Source of the DNA: a bacterium
Lineage (GTDB): Bacteria > Bdellovibrionota > Bdellovibrionia > Bdellovibrionales > Bdellovibrionaceae
Direction: 5' to 3'
NCBI GenBank assembly: GCA_019752925.1
Contig: JAIELP010000008.1
Coordinates: 101,223-165,222, forward strand
DNA: 64,000 nucleotides
The notes beneath the pieces are model-generated. The model was not told the DNA's origin. It did not search any database and saw nothing but the letters and a program-made list of their open reading frames with translations. Position 1 is the stretch's first letter, and each line of letters begins with the position of its first letter. This document shows, one piece after another, positions 6,964 to 38,501 of this stretch. Both the position numbers and the translations under genes were made by a program.

Positions 6964-8535
6964 TTAGTCTAAGCTCCGTTTAAGCTCTTCAAGTATTTCG
7001 GTACCAAATTTTTCAACTTTTGCTTCACCGATTCCATAGATGTTCTGAAGTTCTTCGATGTTTTGTGGATTAACCTGAGCCAACTCACGCAATGTTTTAT
7101 CACCAAAAATAACAAATGCTGGAACATCTAACTCGTTAGCCTTTTCTTTTCGCCAATTTTTAAGGTTTCGGAATACAATTTGTTGCTGAGGACTCATTTC
7201 TTCGCCAACAACAAATTTATATTTTTTCTGATTTTTAGTCAGCTTGAGTGGAGCGGCTACTTTTTGCGGAATCACTTCTAATATTTTGCGGTCAGAGTTA
7301 GGTAAGCAACTATCACAGTGACCGCATTTTTTTAAGCGCTGCGCATCTTTGTAATAAGTTAAAATTTCAGCGTGACGGCACTCGCCACCCTCTGAATAAC
7401 TCACCAAAGCTTCTAAATTGCGCCATTTTAAATCCTTAATAGTTTTGTCTGCCTGTGAGTTTTGAATAAAGAAAGACTGCAGACCCTTATCTTTTTTAGA
7501 GTACAGCATGAGGCATGTTGAAGGATCACCGTCACGTCCAGCACGACCCATTTCCTGATAAAGTGAGTCTATATTGGCCGGCATTTGATAATGCACTACA
7601 AGTCTTACATCAGCTTGATCTATCCCCATGCCAAAAGCATTTGTTGCCACTAATATTCGGAGATCTCCGTTGATATAGGCGTCCTGAATACGGCTGCGCT
7701 CTTTGGCTCCTAGGCCGGCATGATAGTAATCTACTTTTTCAAATTTTTCCTGAAGCATGGCTGAAGTTTCTTCGGCCACTTTACGGGTACCGCAATACAC
7801 AAGTACACGTCCTGTCGGGAATTGTTTTATAGCTTGCAGCAACCATGCATCTTTAACATCATCGTCTTCACAATTTTCAACCTGATAATACAAATTAGGA
7901 CGGTAAAAACCGTGAACCAGTCTTTCCGGCTTAACAAGTTTTAAATTTTTAGCTACGTCATCCAACACAGTAGGGGTTGCAGAGGCAGTTAAAGCTAAAA
8001 TCGGAACGTCCGGTCTCAATTTTTTTAATATTTTTAGCTCTGAATACTCCGCACGAAAATCGTGTCCCCATTGCGATACGCAGTGAGCTTCATCTACAGC
8101 AAATAAAGCAATTTCTCTTTGAAGTATCCACTTTTGAAAACCTTCTTTTTGAACCCTCTCCGGAGATAAATATAAAATAAACGCTCCACCTAAATTAATT
8201 TTTGCAAAGACTAATCGCTTTTGTTCTTCAGTTTGGCCGGAATATAAGGCGCCCGCTGGTATGCCTTTTTTTTCTAAAGAATTAACCTGATCTTTCATTA
8301 AAGCAATTAAGGGAGAAATAACAATGACTAGTTTATTTAAACTAACTGCTGGAAACTGATAGCAAAGTGATTTACCGCCACCTGTTGGCAAAACCGCTAA
8401 TGTATCTTTTTTAGCAAGAACCGCATTGATGATGTCCTGCTGACCAAGCCTGAAATTATCTAAGTTAAATGACTTTTTAAGTTGCGTCTGTAAATTCAAA
8501 TAAACCTTCTTTGGGTATTGTTTAACCCAAAACAA
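6964..8535 (-). CDS. recQ: RecQ-family ATP-dependent DNA helicase with C-terminal HRDC domain
   Basis: PTGGGKS, DEAHC, LTASAT, YHAG, QEMGRAGRDG, Zn-binding Cys, HRDC (VPAFVIFGDKTL). Start may be TTG 8499. Confidence 0.93.
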   Translation of the reverse strand: MFWVKQYPKKVYLNLQTQLKKSFNLDNFRLGQQDIINAVLAKKDTLAVLPTGGGKSLCYQFPAVSLNKLVIVISPLIALMKDQVNSLEKKGIPAGALYSGQTEEQKRLVFAKINLGGAFILYLSPERVQKEGFQKWILQREIALFAVDEAHCVSQWGHDFRAEYSELKILKKLRPDVPILALTASATPTVLDDVAKNLKLVKPERLVHGFYRPNLYYQVENCEDDDVKDAWLLQAIKQFPTGRVLVYCGTRKVAEETSAMLQEKFEKVDYYHAGLGAKERSRIQDAYINGDLRILVATNAFGMGIDQADVRLVVHYQMPANIDSLYQEMGRAGRDGDPSTCLMLYSKKDKGLQSFFIQNSQADKTIKDLKWRNLEALVSYSEGGECRHAEILTYYKDAQRLKKCGHCDSCLPNSDRKILEVIPQKVAAPLKLTKNQKKYKFVVGEEMSPQQQIVFRNLKNWRKEKANELDVPAFVIFGDKTLRELAQVNPQNIEELQNIYGIGEAKVEKFGTEILEELKRSLD

Positions 8536-8731: not shown

Positions 8732-10150
8732 ATGACGAAATCAGTTCTATTATTATCGATGACTCTCGCATCAACTTTATTGATCTCAGCCTGCACCCAC
8801 AGCCCGAGTACACCGATATCTGAACAACGCGTACCTGCCAGTGAAGAGTTAAGCCAAGCAGAAAAAAATGAACTATCCGATGTGGTTTTGAAAAAAAACA
8901 GTAATCGCTTAAAGCAACTTTTTGTTAAAACACGTATAGCGCAAACAATGATTGCCTCATTTGACGCACGTATTGCTAAAATTAACAAAGCCGAAGATAT
9001 GGATAAGTTATTAGAGTCCAATCTATATTGTAAAGTTTGGCAGGTGCGCACGGCTTCTGAACACACAGATGAGCAATTACTTCATGTAATGAAATCGGCT
9101 AAAGCTAACAATCGCGCTGACTGGGTGTACTCTGAAATTTCAGCTTTCGCAAAACAAGAACTTCTTAGCGAAGCCGCAATGTTAAATATGTTCCGCGGTT
9201 TTATTAATGACGAACAAGAAATTTGCGGCCGTGCAAATTGCATGGCGGAAGATGTTTCAAAATTGAGAAACATCCGAGTTAATCCTTTAAACCAAGCAGC
9301 TATGTCTAAATTTATGAAAGACAATCGTGGCAGAATTGCAGCTTACGCAAATATTACAACTAATGATTTAAAACCAGGCGCCTGTTACGAACAAAATCCT
9401 AACAGAAAACCACAAGCCGCGGGTTTTGACTGGGTTAACCGCAACTGGGTTGGCTCAGTATTACCTGTAGGTAGCTTTGTTATCACATACGATGACGGCC
9501 CTCATGTTGTTCACACTCAAGCTATTGCGGATTCTTGGGAACAAGCAGGCTTAGCTAAGCCTGCTTTCTTCTGGTTACGTAAAAACGCAAGTGCTTTACC
9601 TGACGTTGTTCAAAAATTAAATAACCAAGGTTACTCAATCGGTTCTCACTCTGAAAGACATGCGGACTTAGGAAATATAGCTAAGTCCACTTCAGTAGAA
9701 GGCTTAAATGGTACTAATAAACAAGCCTTAGCTTCAGAATTAAAAGGCTTATCTGCAAGTCAATTCAGTGCGTGGAAAGAGCAAACTCTTAACCGTGAAA
9801 TCAACCAGTCCGCAGACGATCTTTCAACTATCATCGGCAAACCATTACGTTACTTCCGCTTACCCTACGGTTCTGGTGTACGTAACGATTTAATCGGCGC
9901 ACGCTTTGAAGCTAAAAATTTAGATCACTTCTTCTGGAGAGTAGACTCTTTAGACTGGCAGGATAAAAATCCTCAATCTATTTTTGAACGCGTAACAACT
10001 CAAATGAAGGCGGTACAAAAAGGTATTATCTTATTCCACGATATTCATCCACAATCAGCTGCCGCTTCAAAATTATTAGTGGAGTACTTCCGCAATAATC
10101 CGAGCCTCAAGGCTGTACCTATGAAAGACCTTCCTGGTTTAAAGGACTAA
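8732..10150 (+). CDS. Lipoprotein polysaccharide/peptidoglycan deacetylase (CE4/NodB) with N-terminal helical domain
   Basis: Lipobox LISAC; CE4 motifs TYDDGP, HSERH, RLPYG, DSLDW and LFHD all intact. Confidence 0.9.
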   Translation: MTKSVLLLSMTLASTLLISACTHSPSTPISEQRVPASEELSQAEKNELSDVVLKKNSNRLKQLFVKTRIAQTMIASFDARIAKINKAEDMDKLLESNLYCKVWQVRTASEHTDEQLLHVMKSAKANNRADWVYSEISAFAKQELLSEAAMLNMFRGFINDEQEICGRANCMAEDVSKLRNIRVNPLNQAAMSKFMKDNRGRIAAYANITTNDLKPGACYEQNPNRKPQAAGFDWVNRNWVGSVLPVGSFVITYDDGPHVVHTQAIADSWEQAGLAKPAFFWLRKNASALPDVVQKLNNQGYSIGSHSERHADLGNIAKSTSVEGLNGTNKQALASELKGLSASQFSAWKEQTLNREINQSADDLSTIIGKPLRYFRLPYGSGVRNDLIGARFEAKNLDHFFWRVDSLDWQDKNPQSIFERVTTQMKAVQKGIILFHDIHPQSAAASKLLVEYFRNNPSLKAVPMKDLPGLKD

Positions 10151-31803: not shown

Positions 31804-32298
31804 TTATTGAACGCCGAAGATCGCTTTGATCTCTGCGTCTGAGTTTACAACGTCTTTAACTTCAGGAGCTAAATTAAGCTCTTTTAAAAGAAGGTTTTTA
31901 GCTGTATCGAGCATTTTCTTTTCGCCGAAGCTTAACTCTTTATCTACTTTAAGAACGTAAAGGTCGCGTAAAACCTCAGCAATTTCAAATACCGAACCGG
32001 TTTTGATTTTTTCCATGTAATCACGGTAACGGCGATTCCATGTTTGAGTATCAATTTTAACGTCTTTATCTTTTAAAATATCCACCACTTTAGTGGCTTC
32101 TTCTTTAGATATAAGAGGGCGTAGACCGATTTTTTGGATATTAGCTGCTGGGATCATAATTTTCATGCCGGTTTCGAGAATTTGAACCGAGTAAAATTCA
32201 TGCTTAGTTCCAAGAATTTCTTTGGATTCAATTGAAGCTATTCGGCCCACACCGTGACCGGGATAAACTGCATGATCTCCTACTTTGAACTGTGACAT
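31804..32298 (-). CDS. carD: CarD/CdnL RNA polymerase-binding regulator
   Basis: FKVGDHAVYPGHGVG, TWNRRYR, LSFGEKKML. Confidence 0.95.
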   Translation of the reverse strand: MSQFKVGDHAVYPGHGVGRIASIESKEILGTKHEFYSVQILETGMKIMIPAANIQKIGLRPLISKEEATKVVDILKDKDVKIDTQTWNRRYRDYMEKIKTGSVFEIAEVLRDLYVLKVDKELSFGEKKMLDTAKNLLLKELNLAPEVKDVVNSDAEIKAIFGVQ

Positions 32299-34578: not shown

Positions 34579-34716
34579 AATTCCTCCTTGAAATTATTAT
34601 TTTAATGAGAAAATTCCACCACGACTTATGCACTGGAGCCACTATTAAATGACTTTAACGCGGCTAAGAAATGTAAATATTTCGGGGTGTTAGCCCTATT
34701 CATAGATTTAATCTAT

Positions 34717-34734
34717 GTTCATATATGTATGAAC
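34717..34734. promoter_or_regulatory. Putative GbsR/MarR operator GTTCATA-N4-TATGAAC upstream of the lipocalin operon
   Basis: 14/14 arm match to the core of the 38052-38099 palindrome; 55 nt upstream of ATG 34790. Confidence 0.7.
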
Positions 34735-34789
34735 TATTTTACTTGTTTAAAAAACTAAAGCTCAGTAAAAGAAAAGCAACGGAGAATTT

Positions 34790-35314
34790 ATGAAAATTTT
34801 AAAAGCCCTCGTTGCCAGTATAATTTTAAGCTCATGCGCTTCTATAAACAAGAGTTATGCCGATGAAACCGACCCTAGCGTTGTAAGCCAAATTGATTTA
34901 CAAAAATACTCCGGCAAATGGTACGAAATTGCACGTAAGCCGACGTTTTTTCAGCGTAACTGTATTCGCTCTACCGCCGAATACCAAGTTATAGACGACT
35001 CTTCTGTTTCTGTTTACAACGTATGCTACAAGGCCGACAACAGCACCAGCGATATTAAAGGTACGGCTAAAATTGTGGACCGCAATGTACCGGCTAAACT
35101 TAAGGTTAAATTTAATATTTTTGCTCAGGGTGAATACTGGGTTACTGAACTTGACCCTAATTACCAATGGGCCGTGGTGAGCGCGTCTAAAAAATCCTCA
35201 TTATTTATTTTAGCCCGCGAAGCTCCTATGAAACCTGAGTTATTGAAATCGATACTGGATACTTTAAAAGCTAAAAACTTTGACTTAACAGATTTAGTTT
35301 ACGACCAATACTAA
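34790..35314 (+). CDS. blc: Bacterial lipocalin lipoprotein (Blc-like)
   Basis: Lipobox LSSC; YSGKWYEIAR, YWV...DPNYQWAVV, LFILAR. Confidence 0.92.
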   Translation: MKILKALVASIILSSCASINKSYADETDPSVVSQIDLQKYSGKWYEIARKPTFFQRNCIRSTAEYQVIDDSSVSVYNVCYKADNSTSDIKGTAKIVDRNVPAKLKVKFNIFAQGEYWVTELDPNYQWAVVSASKKSSLFILAREAPMKPELLKSILDTLKAKNFDLTDLVYDQY

Positions 35315-36027
35315 TGAATTTTTTTGCAAGCCTACTTATCTTAATTCAACTGACCTCTGCCCGCGCTGAGTTCAGCCCCTATAACGCTCAGGTTTCTGAT
35401 CTGGATGCAGATCAGAAAAAAATATTATTTGATATCAAGGCCGACAAAAAAATTATTGATGAAAATCTTTATCTGGATGTTAGCGTTTTAGACAAAAACT
35501 CAGAAATAGCTATACGAGAAAGCGCCATCGTTAATAAAAACAGCGCAGAAATTATAGAATACAAAATCACCAATAATCAAACCCGCGAGCGCGGTGTTGT
35601 TACAGTCAAAGATAAAATTATAATTGAGTACACAGACCCTGAAAATAAAACCAAAACTAAAGAATTTGCTAAACCTTCCCGCTTAGTGGCTCCTGCAAAT
35701 TTTGAGCTTTGGATTATACGTAACTTTGAGCTCCTAAAAAAAGAAAAAAGTCTCAGTGTTGATTTCCTGATCTGGGACCGACTAGAAACCATTAAATTTA
35801 AAGTAACTTATATGGGTGAACAATCCCTGGATGGCGAGAATAGCCAACTTTTCAAGATGAATATTGATAACTTTTTACTGGCCGCTTTTATTTCGCCTAT
35901 TAAAATCTGGTATAAGGCCGACATGAGCGAAATCAAACTTTATGAAGGACGCGTGGCCGTACGCAAAAAAAACAGCTCCGGCAAATATGACGACCTGGAC
36001 GGACGAGTCACCTACACCTACAAATAA
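35314..36027 (+). CDS. Hypothetical exported beta-rich protein (DUF3108-like)
   Basis: TAATG overlap with lipocalin; signal peptide; beta-strand pattern ending IKIWY...YEGR. Confidence 0.6.
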   Translation: MNFFASLLILIQLTSARAEFSPYNAQVSDLDADQKKILFDIKADKKIIDENLYLDVSVLDKNSEIAIRESAIVNKNSAEIIEYKITNNQTRERGVVTVKDKIIIEYTDPENKTKTKEFAKPSRLVAPANFELWIIRNFELLKKEKSLSVDFLIWDRLETIKFKVTYMGEQSLDGENSQLFKMNIDNFLLAAFISPIKIWYKADMSEIKLYEGRVAVRKKNSSGKYDDLDGRVTYTYK

Positions 36028-36036
36028 ACCTAGGAA

Positions 36037-37533
36037 TCATTTTTTAACTACCTGTTGAAATAATGAAATCGCTTTTACTTTTTGAGTGGCGTGATCCACC
36101 ATAGGTCGCGGATACATACTTCCACGGGCTCCGTCAGGGTCATGAATCGTTTTGGCCGGAATAGTTTTGAGTTCAGGAACATAGGTTTTAATATATTCAG
36201 CTGCTGGATCAAACTTTTCAGATTGAAGCCATGGATTGAATATACGGAAATAAGGCTGAGGGTCGCATCCGGTTGAGGCCGCCCATTGCCAGCCACCATT
36301 ATTAGGAGCCAGATCTCCGTCTAAAAGCATTTTCATGAAATAGTTTTCACCCCAGCGCCAATCAATTAATAAATCTTTTACCAAAAATGAGGCCACTATC
36401 ATGCGTACACGATTGTGCATCCAACCCGTTTGATTGAGCTGCCTCATTCCAGCATCTACAATCGGAAAACCCGTTTGCCCAGCACACCAACGCTCAAAAT
36501 AACTTTTATTATTTTCCCACTTTAAGTTTATATACTGAGGTAAAAAGGCCTGCTTTTCACATTCAGATTTGTGATACATGATCGAATAGTAAAACTCGCG
36601 CCATGCAATTTCTTTCACATATTGAGTAGAGTTATCTTTTGTGGCCCACTGTTTACTTTGCAGTTTCAGCGTGGCTAAAATCTGAGATGAAACCAAACTT
36701 CCGTTTTTTTGATACATTGAAAGCTGCGACGTGCCGTCGATGTAAGGCAAGTCCCGCTGTTCTTTGTAGTTTTCAACCTGTTGTTTAAAATTCAGCAAGC
36801 GTTCATAGGCTGTTTTAAACCCGGCCTCCGGAATTTTAATACTAACGGATTTATTATTTTCATTTTCAAATTTGGCTAAACTATCTGTGTAAGGTAAATT
36901 TTTAAAATCAGACCACTTTAAAGAAAAAATCTGATCTAAATTGTTTTGTTTTAAACGTTTATAGTACTGCTCGATATTGGCCTGCGCTGCCACGCGCTTT
37001 TGGCCTTCCGCTGTGGCCAGCTTTTCAAACCAGCGCCGCGCATAGGGCGAATAAATCTGATAAAAACTTTGATCGTCTTTTAATATTTCATGGGGCTCAA
37101 ATAAAACATGGTCTCTTTCGGAATATGTTTTAACTCCATAGGAATTAAAAATATTTATAAGATTCTCATCGCGGCTTCTGGCAAAAGGTTCATAATCTTG
37201 ACCAAAGCTGATGAGTTCCGGCAGACTTATATTATTACTTTTAAAGTGCTCAAATAAACGCGTAAACGCCACATGGGGTTGCTCGTCCACAACCAGCAGA
37301 TCTCCACCTTGCACTTGCATTTCTTTTTTTAGCTCTTTCAATGTATTTATAAAAAAAGCAAATCGATTGTGGGAAAAATCAGGCCTGCTTAAAAAAGCCG
37401 AATCAAAACAAAAAAGACCTAGCACTTTTTGATCGCAGGATTTCCAGCTATAACGGAGATTGGCATTGCCGGCAATTCTCAGATCGCGTCTGAACCAATG
37501 TATGCCGTACTTGGTTTTTGAATTGAGCTCCAT
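36037..37533 (-). CDS. phrB: Deoxyribodipyrimidine photolyase (class I)
   Basis: HWFRRDLRI, TSQLS, WREFY, TGFPIVDAGMRQL, GWMHNRVRM, NNGGWQW, RIFNP. Confidence 0.95.
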   Translation of the reverse strand: MELNSKTKYGIHWFRRDLRIAGNANLRYSWKSCDQKVLGLFCFDSAFLSRPDFSHNRFAFFINTLKELKKEMQVQGGDLLVVDEQPHVAFTRLFEHFKSNNISLPELISFGQDYEPFARSRDENLINIFNSYGVKTYSERDHVLFEPHEILKDDQSFYQIYSPYARRWFEKLATAEGQKRVAAQANIEQYYKRLKQNNLDQIFSLKWSDFKNLPYTDSLAKFENENNKSVSIKIPEAGFKTAYERLLNFKQQVENYKEQRDLPYIDGTSQLSMYQKNGSLVSSQILATLKLQSKQWATKDNSTQYVKEIAWREFYYSIMYHKSECEKQAFLPQYINLKWENNKSYFERWCAGQTGFPIVDAGMRQLNQTGWMHNRVRMIVASFLVKDLLIDWRWGENYFMKMLLDGDLAPNNGGWQWAASTGCDPQPYFRIFNPWLQSEKFDPAAEYIKTYVPELKTIPAKTIHDPDGARGSMYPRPMVDHATQKVKAISLFQQVVKK

Positions 37534-38063
37534 CAGTTACCATTACTTTTAGTATGAGGGCCCACCAACTCACCCAGCTCAGAAAAATCACCTGCATGAC
37601 ACAAAATTGTAATAAATGAATTGGCCTGATTGATCATTTCGCCAAGTGACTCCAGACGCTGTTGGTTCAGAGAGCTCTTTGATCCTGAGTTTTGAAGTTC
37701 TGAAAATTTTGAGAACTCCTGACTTACTTTTTGCAACATCACGAACTCTCTGTTTTCTAAAACATTTCTGATGACCGACATAAAATCGGGATTGGCTTCA
37801 TAAAGCTTTGTTCTGGTATCGCCGGACTTAACTTGAAATATGACCTTGTGCTTGATCAACTCTTTTAAAGCGGGGCTAACAAGTGCTTTAGACACACCTA
37901 TGTTTTTAACTAAATCAGCACCAGACAAAGGCTCATTTGAAAGATAAAGCTGCGACCATATTTGCCCGTGAATACGGCGAAAGCCCCAGTAGTGTATAAA
38001 GTCGCCAATAGCCCGAGACAGGGCTTTAAACTGCTTATTTTTGAGATCTGCTTGTTTTTTCAT
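37533..38063 (-). CDS. GbsR/MarR-family winged-helix transcriptional regulator
   Basis: WGFRRIHGQIWSQLYLSNEPLS...GVSKALVSPALKEL; TGATG overlap with phrB; start revised to ATG 38063 (MKKQADL). Confidence 0.85.
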   Translation of the reverse strand: MKKQADLKNKQFKALSRAIGDFIHYWGFRRIHGQIWSQLYLSNEPLSGADLVKNIGVSKALVSPALKELIKHKVIFQVKSGDTRTKLYEANPDFMSVIRNVLENREFVMLQKVSQEFSKFSELQNSGSKSSLNQQRLESLGEMINQANSFITILCHAGDFSELGELVGPHTKSNGN

Positions 38064-38099
38064 ATAGTTCATAGTACTATGAACTATATGAAAAAACAA
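38052..38099. promoter_or_regulatory. Perfect 48-bp palindrome: symmetric bidirectional sigma70-like promoter and operator overlapping two start codons
   Basis: TTGTTTTTTCATATAGTTCATAGT|ACTATGAACTATATGAAAAAACAA; each strand reads TTGTTT-17 nt-TACTAT-7 nt-ATG. Confidence 0.8.
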
Positions 38100-38501
38100 T
38101 ACGAACTTAAAGTTTTTTACGATGGTTTATGTAGAGTTTGTTCAGCGGAAATCGAATACTACAAAAAACAAAGTGGTAGCGCTAAAATAAATTTTGTTGA
38201 TATTTTTTCGCCGGACTTTAACGCCGAGTCCGAAAATTTAGATCCAGCCAAAATTCACAAACACTTGCACGCAAAAAAAGAAGATGGAAGCGTTCTTGTA
38301 GGAGTGGATGTTTTCATTGAAATCTGGAAAAATCTCGATCGCTTCAAAAAAATATCAGTTCTCGCTGAAAATAAAATAATTAAAACCACCCTAAAGTGGG
38401 GCTATAAACTATTTGCAGATATACGGCCCTATCTGCCACGCCGTAAGGCTGCGGATTGCACCGAAAGCCCTTATTGCACAGCCCACAATCCAAATAGCTA
38501 A
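38088..38501 (+). CDS. DUF393/DCC1-like thiol-disulfide oxidoreductase
   Basis: FYDGLCRVC (CxxC), LHAKK, GVDVFIEIW, RPYL; start revised to ATG 38088 (MKKQYEL). Confidence 0.88.
   Translation: MKKQYELKVFYDGLCRVCSAEIEYYKKQSGSAKINFVDIFSPDFNAESENLDPAKIHKHLHAKKEDGSVLVGVDVFIEIWKNLDRFKKISVLAENKIIKTTLKWGYKLFADIRPYLPRRKAADCTESPYCTAHNPNS

Follow-up and report, generated by a model that had tools for sequence, protein, structure and literature searches.

A probable palindromic operator and a GbsR/MarR-type repressor predicted to control a UV and photo-oxidative defence regulon in Bdellovibrionota

Gene organisation of the locus

The stretch of DNA analysed here (the window) comprises 64,000 nt from a Bdellovibrionaceae bacterium (GCA_019752925.1, contig JAIELP010000008.1, positions 101,223-165,222 of the forward strand; 39% G+C). 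Its region of interest, window positions 34,717-38,501, harbours two copies of an 18-bp palindrome, GTTCATA-N4-TATGAAC, along with genes encoding a lipocalin, an exported protein, a photolyase, a small winged-helix regulator and a DCC1-like oxidoreductase. Judged by its conservation, the palindrome is very probably the binding site of a GbsR/MarR-type repressor, predicted to be the regulator encoded beside it. Taking all lines of evidence together, we consider it likely that this protein acts as a dimeric, autoregulated MJ223/GbsR-type repressor that controls a regulon for defence against UV and photo-oxidative damage. Bdellovibrio and related bacteria are predators that swim freely in sunlit waters and carry no pigment; the window sequence itself was present only in DNA metagenomes, originating from fresh, drinking and ground water. 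The features of the region, by window position, are:

34717-34734: operator copy 1, GTTCATA-TATG-TATGAAC (GTTCATATATGTATGAAC), within the 211 bp that separate the S8 peptidase gene from the lipocalin gene
34790-35314, plus strand: blc, lipocalin outer-membrane lipoprotein with lipobox LSSC (Pfam Lipocalin_2 4.7e-42, NCBIfam Blc 7e-25)
35314-36027, plus strand: open reading frame (ORF) 237, or ORF237, an exported protein of 237 amino acids, its start overlapping the blc stop (TAATG)
36037-37533, minus strand: class-I-type cyclobutane pyrimidine dimer (CPD) photolyase (Pfam FAD_binding_7 2.6e-81, DNA_photolyase 2.1e-27)
37533-38063, minus strand: regulator (REG), 176 amino acids, MJ223/GbsR-type winged-helix protein, predicted autorepressor
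38067-38084: operator copy 2, GTTCATA-GTAC-TATGAAC (GTTCATAGTACTATGAAC), between two divergent start codons
38088-38501, plus strand: DCC1-like (DUF393) thiol-disulfide oxidoreductase with the CxxC motif CRVC (Pfam DCC1-like 6.1e-21)

The lipocalin, photolyase and DUF393 CxxC gene calls of a first-pass annotation of this DNA were upheld by Pfam and NCBIfam. The photolyase start overlaps the regulator stop by one base (TGATG), hence the two genes are taken to be co-transcribed, whilst blc opens the operon that lies downstream of operator copy 1.

Occurrence of the palindrome in the window

A search with GTTCATANNNNTATGAAC, in which up to two mismatches were allowed, returned exactly two matches in the 64 kb, both of them perfect. 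The number of further exact 14-base matches expected by chance, given the base composition of the window, was 6.4e-4, in agreement with the earlier estimate of 1e-4 to 1e-3. The first-pass annotation had also described a palindrome with identical arms occurring twice, 3.3 kb apart and once 55 nt before the lipocalin gene; both coordinates and search confirmed this, with 3350 nt from the start of site 1 to site 2 and 55 nt from the end of site 1 to the lipocalin ATG at 34790. A weight matrix of the 18-bp core, built from 73 orthologous sites, scored site 1 at 17.3 bits and site 2 at 30.0 bits. Shuffled windows yielded 0.05 matches of at least 15 bits with this matrix, and no third site was detected in the 64-kb window down to 8 bits. 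A 30-bp matrix including the flanks missed site 1 and was discarded in favour of the 18-bp core.

Site 2 was found to form the centre of a perfect 48-bp palindrome (38052-38099) that covers both divergent start codons, those of the regulator (ATG at 38063, minus strand) and of the DCC1-like gene (ATG at 38088, plus strand). Both genes consequently start with ATGAAAAAACAA, and the two proteins share the N-terminus MKKQ because of this palindrome.

Conservation of the operator across Bdellovibrionota

The comparison covered 80 loci from GTDB genomes and five loci from close relatives which, together with metagenome stretches, amounted to approximately 125 in all. Conservation of the motif upstream of orthologues had been singled out as a check on the first-pass proposal, and the motif was conserved in 73 of the 80 genome loci: the palindrome stood just before the regulator gene in every one of the 73 in which the YWGFR anchor was found, with no mismatch in 36 and three or fewer in the rest. 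It also preceded the regulator gene in the five close-relative loci, and over the whole set of 85 loci, of which about 75 have the site, the regulators share only 40-77% identity. The arm positions G1, T2, T3, C4 and A5, and T14, G15, A16, A17 and C18, were 97-99% invariant around a centre of the form sTAs, whereas third codon positions within the identical peptide FIRYWGFRRIHG of the same genes were on average 55% conserved; the site is therefore held far above neutral expectation amongst regulators that are 40-55% identical. The ORF calls of homologues often begin with MNYM or MNNM, corresponding to the DNA sequence ATGAAC-WAT-ATG, in which the true start codon comes after the right half-site.

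The DCC1-like gene was divergent from the regulator in about 45 of the 80 loci. Where it was unlinked from the regulator, a separate operator copy stood at the start of the gene (L012, L016, L045, L049, L054, L055 and L062). Three closer relatives (L081, L084 and L085), with regulators 77% and 55-57% identical to that of the window, retained the whole layout of DCC1-like gene, regulator and photolyase genes, opposed lipocalin-ORF pair and S8 peptidase gene. The lipocalin site had perfect arms in L081 and one mismatch in L084, within surrounding sequence that could not be aligned. Comparative genomics thus bore out the view that the sites serve the regulator and photolyase, the DUF393/DCC1-like protein, and the lipocalin and exported protein.

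A scan of metagenomes for the exact operator (GTTCATASTASTATGAAC) returned 43 stretches, 23 of which had the site directly at genes for the regulator, a DCC1-like protein, OsmC, DUF2805, a short-chain dehydrogenase/reductase (SDR), an amine oxidase or a photolyase; nine of these 23 had no adjoining regulator gene. The other 20 matches are about the number expected by chance, on a rough estimate of the collection size. Separately, two marine stretches, L114 (487-504 and 1231-1248) and L128 (199-216 and 934-951), each contained two exact operator copies approximately 740 bp apart in GC-rich DNA, in which regulon genes and convincing ORFs were absent. Their status as related elements was not upheld, and they are taken as chance occurrences or an unrelated repeat.

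A changed operator was encountered only in L025 and L037, in the form GTTCACA...TATAAAC and, symmetrically, GTTTATA...TATAAAC. These were also the only loci in which the recognition helix read VSKGLISTAVNEL (VSKGLISTAV) in place of VSKAL[VI]SPAL. Such covariation is what would be expected if the regulator reads these bases. It probably reflects a single evolutionary event, and is therefore supportive rather than decisive.

The regulator family

The regulator scored 18.3 bits against Pfam MarR_2 (cut-off 27), and its best curated model, the NCBIfam GbsR-type choline regulator CudC, gave a whole-length but weak similarity of 30 bits against a cut-off of 218. The JGI (COG-based) and some NCBI records call homologues 'GbsR (MarR family)'. 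A protein search recovered 209 relatives, and an exhaustive profile search of 1.84 billion representatives gave 211 clusters (50% identity) at E<=1e-30, indicating a small family. All 80 of the genome loci recovered belonged to Bdellovibrionota, including Bdellovibrio, Pseudobdellovibrionaceae, Bacteriovoracaceae, metagenome-assembled genomes of Oligoflexia and one cultured B. bacteriovorus strain.

When 39 members were aligned, an invariant GDFIxYWGFRRIHGxIW, the recognition helix SKALVSPA and an RE pair opening the long helix became apparent. No cysteine occurred among the invariant or near-invariant columns of these 39 sequences, and the single cysteine of the window regulator lies in the variable tail. 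The family profile matched PDB entry 1KU9 (MJ223) with an E-value of 2.2e-16 across residues 26-154. An AlphaFold2 model of the regulator, with a mean predicted local distance difference test (pLDDT) score of 87, had 1KU9 as its best fold match (template modelling score, TM-score, 0.60-0.68), followed by 5JBR and 4NB5, whilst canonical MarR structures reached a TM-score of about 0.4. These models and alignments place the regulator on a separate Bdellovibrionota branch of the MJ223/GbsR-type fold, as a subfamily distinct by sequence. The first-pass annotation had suggested a GbsR protein repurposed; the fold part of that statement stands, but with scores so far under the curated GbsR thresholds the protein is better regarded as a branch of its own.

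The invariant residues Y25, W26, F28, R29, R30, H32 and W36 are located, along with R105 and E106, in helices 1-2 and at the start of helix 5, the region in which MarR proteins usually bind their ligands. The linker, residues 88-106 (YxANPDVxxVIxxVLxxRE), had one or two aromatic positions, and not four to six, in the alignment of the 39 family members.

A more distant branch of the family carries the motif YWGFK, often with long low-complexity tails (L129 3793-4051, L130 7937-8001), and likewise adjoins photolyase, ABC1 and SDR-DUF1731 genes. The GTTCATA-N4-TATGAAC site was not found at this branch, where the upstream sequence is different, although GTTCAAAGAAGCTTAAAC at L130 is possibly a related operator.

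Genes behind the operator

The content of the putative regulon was compiled by walking ORFs in both directions from every site, clustering their products and annotating representatives with Pfam and NCBIfam. The number of loci in which each product was found behind the operator was:

Regulator: 79
DCC1-like protein: 51
OsmC/Ohr-like peroxiredoxin: 43
Four-transmembrane (4-TM) protein of about 140 amino acids, no family: 40
Photolyase family, class I or DPRP type (PF04244): 31
DUF2805/TIGR03643: 26
ABC1/UbiB-like kinase: 16
TIGR01777 SDR fused to DUF1731 and SRPBCC: 15
Flavin amine-oxidase-like protein: 13
Lipocalin: 8
SOUL haem-binding protein: 5
GTP cyclohydrolase I: 4
Glutathione peroxidase: 3

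Further operator-linked products included SnoaL-like proteins and a methyltransferase. A photolyase-family gene directly followed the regulator in about 24 loci; the DPRP type is the iron-sulfur (6-4)/CryB-like group. The eight lipocalin genes were found in operator-controlled operons of loci other than the window, for instance in L055 (ortholog, 6e-57). The order of the approximately 12 gene families around the operator varied between loci, which is the pattern of a regulon and not of one inherited operon. Among the clustered neighbours of the approximately 125 loci there were no opu, gbs, bet or other osmoprotectant genes and no cydAB; no photoreceptor domain was seen in the conserved neighbours, and no other regulator gene was conserved in the loci. 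Light and singlet-oxygen regulons of other bacteria contain comparable gene content, and by this analogy the gene set supports a role in UV and photo-oxidative defence. Gene content does not, however, separate light from oxidant stress.

Homologues of OsmC, DUF2805, ABC1, SDR and SOUL proteins were absent from the 64-kb window, hence any wider regulon of this genome would lie outside it. The second gene of the lipocalin operon, ORF237, matched no Pfam or NCBIfam model even at E<=1, and its homologues, 34 in all, are every one unnamed. Its AlphaFold2 model (pLDDT 90) displayed a signal peptide and a closed beta-barrel, for which the best folds were DUF1849 (6NTR, TM-score 0.50) and then LolA/LprG/nitrobindin-type carriers of hydrophobic ligands; the YmcC-like exported protein 3FZX gave a TM-score of only 0.34-0.37. 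The earlier label 'DUF3108-like' for this ORF did not hold, since PF11306 was not matched at E<=1 and the nearest fold is DUF1849. The ORF237 family was found behind the operator in three arrangements, those of the window, L055 (SnoaL-ORF237) and L066 (DCC-ORF237).

Several other features of the surroundings were recorded. A 4-TM gene of about 140 amino acids follows the photolyase gene in the three closest relatives (L081 9294-9713, L084 6598-7002 and L085 3914-4315); it is missing from the window, where the convergent stops at 36027-36037 are only 9 nt apart. Window positions 34579-34690, directly upstream of the S8 peptidase gene, are kept in the same three relatives (columns 1-100 of alignment A2), unlike the mid-intergenic region, and may constitute a leader or regulatory element of that gene. 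A CarD/CdnL-type gene (CarD_TRCF_RID, 31804-32298), 2.4 kb from site 1 and syntenic in these relatives, has no operator in front. In Myxococcus, CarD is part of the light response; the gene in the window is probably of the housekeeping CdnL type.

Proposed promoter layout

The central TAsTAT of the operator reads as a -10 hexamer on either strand, and its best-kept bases, T9, A10 and T14, are key -10 positions. The elements identified at site 2 are:

38052-38057, plus strand: -35-like TTGTTT, within codons 2-4 of the opposite gene
38071-38076, minus strand: -10-like TACTAT, inside the operator
38075-38080, plus strand: -10-like TACTAT, inside the operator
38094-38099, minus strand: -35-like TTGTTT, within codons 2-4 of the opposite gene

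The placement of each -35 box inside codons 2-4 of the opposite gene explains the 48-bp mirror; these codons are the reverse complement of the other gene's -35 box, and coding sequence and promoter therefore constrain each other. In the window 7 nt separate the -10 boxes from the start codons at 38088 and 38063, and across the family the regulator start codon lies 3 nt past the operator, which is 7 nt after the -10 box, in 61 of 77 genes. A TAA stop separates an in-frame ATG inside the operator from the downstream ATG in L027, L042, L058 and L062, hence translation is taken to start at the conserved ATG that follows the operator by 3 nt. Such a position leaves no space for a Shine-Dalgarno sequence, whereas the neighbouring lipocalin and peptidase genes have one. 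In the direction of the DCC1-like gene, 49 loci exhibited a TTGACA-like signal at operator position -15, 17 nt before the central -10. The lipocalin sites, positioned 13-55 nt before genes with a Shine-Dalgarno sequence, keep the arms and lose the central TA..T, which argues for the arms as the protein target and the centre as promoter. In all probability the operator centre also provides the -10 boxes for a pair of back-to-back promoters whose transcripts have a minimal leader or none.

Assembled contigs from other members of the group may bear on the transcript starts. For L062, which is B. bacteriovorus-like, four public runs left both operators uncovered by their contigs (gaps at 7960-8011 and 9293-9351). 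The contigs end reproducibly at 7959, 8012/8013 and 9292, positions that fall 13-14 nt inside the starts that the model predicts; adapter sequence was joined at 7959 in two runs and at 9292. In addition, one relative has a metatranscriptome contig whose first base lies about 5 nt ahead of the regulator ATG. If the L062 contig ends are transcript ends, they would weakly suggest very short or absent leaders.

Proposed mechanism and signal

We infer binding, repression, the promoter geometry and signal-driven release of the repressor as follows. A dimer of the regulator would recognise the arms of GTTCATA-N4-TATGAAC. At its own locus, the palindrome fills the 24-bp gap between the divergent start codons, and its centre would serve as the -10 of two back-to-back promoters with their -35 boxes in the first codons of the opposite gene, and transcripts would begin at the ATGs or a few bases before. 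One bound dimer would then block both promoters, switching off the regulator and photolyase genes as well as the DCC1-like gene, and autoregulation would result; repression and autoregulation are implied by an operator that covers the -10 boxes and starts of two promoters. Copy 1, 55 nt before blc, would extend this control to the lipocalin-ORF237 operon. Elsewhere in Bdellovibrionota the operator would control shuffled sets of photolyases, peroxidases and proteins handling lipids, quinones or haem, from which we conclude that the regulon probably serves defence against UV and photo-oxidative damage.

We favour as the signal a small molecule, hydrophobic or oxidised, that arises from light or oxidative stress and would occupy the pocket in which MarR proteins usually hold their ligands. 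Since the family has no conserved cysteine, a thiol switch of the OhrR kind is unlikely, and photo-oxidation of a Trp/His cluster, or control by a neighbouring flavoprotein, is less likely than release by a small molecule. That the system acts as a switch for light or reactive oxygen species is a reasonable hypothesis drawn solely from the content of the regulon.

A number of points weigh against this proposal. Site 1 scores well under the family optimum (17 versus 30 bits), and the lipocalin site is degenerate in L085. The link between protein and site comes from association and one covariation event, and the variant loci may belong to one clade, whilst the centre and flanks of the palindrome could be conserved for promoter reasons alone. 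A consensus promoter scan proposed another -10, TATAGT at 38063-38068, though in this AT-rich region the scan performed no better than shuffles (12 versus 10.9 expected). The L062 evidence consists of assembled contigs from another species, with the run type unrecorded, and fits leaderless transcripts only with a constant 5' loss of about 14 nt. Operon membership was assigned by a simple ORF walk and not by gene calls or transcripts, and the regulon content would also fit peroxide or lipid-peroxide stress without light.

Alternative explanations

This last point leads to the strongest competitor, in which the same operator and repressor respond to organic peroxides, lipid peroxides or general oxidative stress, and photolyases are carried along since UV and oxidative stress coincide in surface waters. 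It accounts well for the commonest members of the gene set, these being OsmC/Ohr (43 loci), glutathione peroxidase, DCC1-like, lipocalin, SRPBCC and UbiB-like proteins, and for a conserved neighbourhood devoid of photoreceptor domains. It accounts less well for two non-orthologous photolyase classes, class I and DPRP (PF04244), holding the same place behind the regulator in about 24 loci, given that a photolyase has no use in the dark and that such genes typically belong to light or singlet-oxygen regulons. The photolyases are, moreover, joined in four loci by GTP cyclohydrolase I, an enzyme of folate antenna synthesis, and the conserved cysteine of the OhrR kind is absent. On balance we regard a purely oxidative signal as possible, yet the less likely account.

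A more far-reaching proposal, which we consider unlikely, is that the regulator, alone or with the neighbouring photolyase/cryptochrome-family or DCC1-like protein, itself senses light or singlet oxygen. This could proceed by photo-oxidation of, or ligand capture by, the invariant Tyr-Trp-Phe-His-Trp cluster (YWGFRRIHGxIW), or through light-dependent contact with the flavoprotein. If true, non-pigmented predatory bacteria would possess a light-responsive transcription switch of their own, of a kind not known before.

It is improbable that the palindrome is only a mirrored bidirectional promoter, with overlapping -10s and leaderless starts, whose recurrence reflects a shared promoter type. The central TAsTAT does fit a -10 on both strands, the start codons are fixed 7 nt from the -10 in 61 of 77 regulator genes and a -35-like signal occurs at 17-nt spacing. 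Conservation is strongest, however, in the GTTC/GAAC arms. These correspond to no sigma-70 element, vary together with the recognition helix and are retained at the lipocalin sites without the central TA..T, 13-55 nt before genes with a Shine-Dalgarno sequence; the motif is, furthermore, restricted to one gene set.

That another factor (LexA, a CarH/LitR-type protein or a sigma-factor system) binds the site, with the regulator gene as a mere target, we hold to be highly improbable. Some bacteria place photolyase and DNA-damage genes under LexA control (PMC3323433), and GTTC/GAAC words are found in several LexA boxes. The LexA box reported for B. bacteriovorus, however, is TTAC-N3-GTAA (PMC3323433), unlike GTTCATA-N4-TATGAAC. 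The loci are also without any other conserved regulator gene, almost all of them have the site beside the regulator gene, the variant site occurs together with the variant recognition helix, and Pfam finds neither a MerR nor a B12-binding domain in the regulator.

Least credible of all, to the point of being almost negligible, is a true choline/osmolyte-responsive GbsR governing an osmotic-stress set, for although CudC is the best curated match and databases label homologues GbsR (MarR family), the CudC score is 30 bits against 218, opu, gbs and bet genes occur in none of the approximately 125 loci, and the linker (residues 88-106) has one or two aromatics at most, against the six that form the GbsR cage (PMC6207618). 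The identities LexA, CarH/LitR, OhrR-type and choline-GbsR were accordingly rejected, as motif, domains, cysteines and gene context disagree with them. Repression by the MJ223/GbsR-type protein, within a UV and photo-oxidative defence regulon, is the reading that we retain.

Comparison with known systems

The searchable literature contained no paper linking GbsR with photolyase, in keeping with the first-pass statement that no description was known, and nothing relevant on DUF393 with photolyase, DUF2805, COG1510 or TIGR03643/TIGR01777. Nor did it describe the regulation of sunlight protection in Bdellovibrio and its relatives, for which the present work offers a phylum-wide regulon with a sharply defined operator and a candidate repressor, in the same layout in at least one cultured B. 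bacteriovorus strain. It would also lend physiological context to families whose function is not known, namely DUF2805/TIGR03643, the 4-TM 140-amino-acid protein, the ORF237 barrel and the DCC1-like proteins. If confirmed, the mirrored promoter with embedded -10s and near-leaderless starts would be a compact example of overlap between gene starts and promoters. The repressor architecture is a familiar one; the subfamily, its operator and its regulon were not found described.

A 2018 survey of 179 GbsR-type proteins assigned members to osmolyte uptake, glycine betaine synthesis, cytochrome bd and other transporters, left 73 unassigned, and included neither a photolyase context nor Bdellovibrionota (PMC6207618). 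The survey defines the osmostress subgroup by aromatic residues near the linker, which form a cage for choline or glycine betaine, and it describes CydE, a GbsR-type repressor of cytochrome bd induced by sulfate (PMC6207618). The first-pass characterisation of GbsR-type proteins as choline/osmolyte regulators was hence too narrow, a non-osmolyte member and 73 unassigned proteins having already been described (PMC6207618). GbsR, OpuAR, OpcR and CydE resemble the regulator in having an N-terminal winged helix and long C-terminal helices (the 1KU9 fold), and in being encoded by a small autoregulated repressor gene divergent from its target, autoregulation being predicted in the present case. Unlike them, the regulator has its own invariant YWGFRRIHG, scores below the family cut-offs and, in the family alignment, appears to lack an aromatic cage in the linker. 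It differs further in its neighbours, which are photolyases and antioxidant or lipid-handling genes with no osmolyte or cytochrome bd genes, and in its distribution, as far as seen confined to Bdellovibrionota.

OhrR-type repressors, also of the MarR superfamily, control Ohr/OsmC peroxiredoxins through a palindromic operator that overlaps the promoter. OhrR has a reactive cysteine near the N-terminus, whereas the regulator family has no conserved cysteine, an MJ223-like fold subtype and a much wider regulon that includes photolyases.

The CarH/LitR and ChrR-sigmaE systems have an output comparable to the gene set described here, since in response to light or singlet oxygen they induce genes for photolyase, lipid modification and antioxidant functions. 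The regulator has neither the MerR helix-turn-helix nor the B12-binding domain by Pfam, in contrast to CarH and LitR, which are MerR-type adenosyl-B12 photoreceptor repressors (mechanism summarised in PMC6739363). No pair of extracytoplasmic function (ECF) sigma factor and zinc anti-sigma factor, as in ChrR-sigmaE, was present in the 32-42 kb part of the window, nor did one occur among the conserved neighbours, and the conserved element is a palindrome and not an ECF-type -35/-10 pair. For both systems the sensing chemistry is known.

A parallel is provided by CrtR of Corynebacterium glutamicum, a MarR-type repressor that is needed for light induction of carotenoid genes and whose ligand is unknown (PMC6739363); CrtR is therefore a precedent for a MarR-type repressor mediating light induction. 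As proposed for the regulator, CrtR is divergent from its target and binds the shared promoter region. It differs in being a canonical MarR protein of Actinobacteria with a long footprint lacking a clear palindrome, and its targets in that study were crt genes, not phrB (PMC6739363). Should the proposal hold, the Bdellovibrionota repressor would be a fourth type of regulator over light and UV defence genes, beside CarH/LitR, ChrR-sigmaE and CrtR, and would widen the range of the MJ223/GbsR-type fold.

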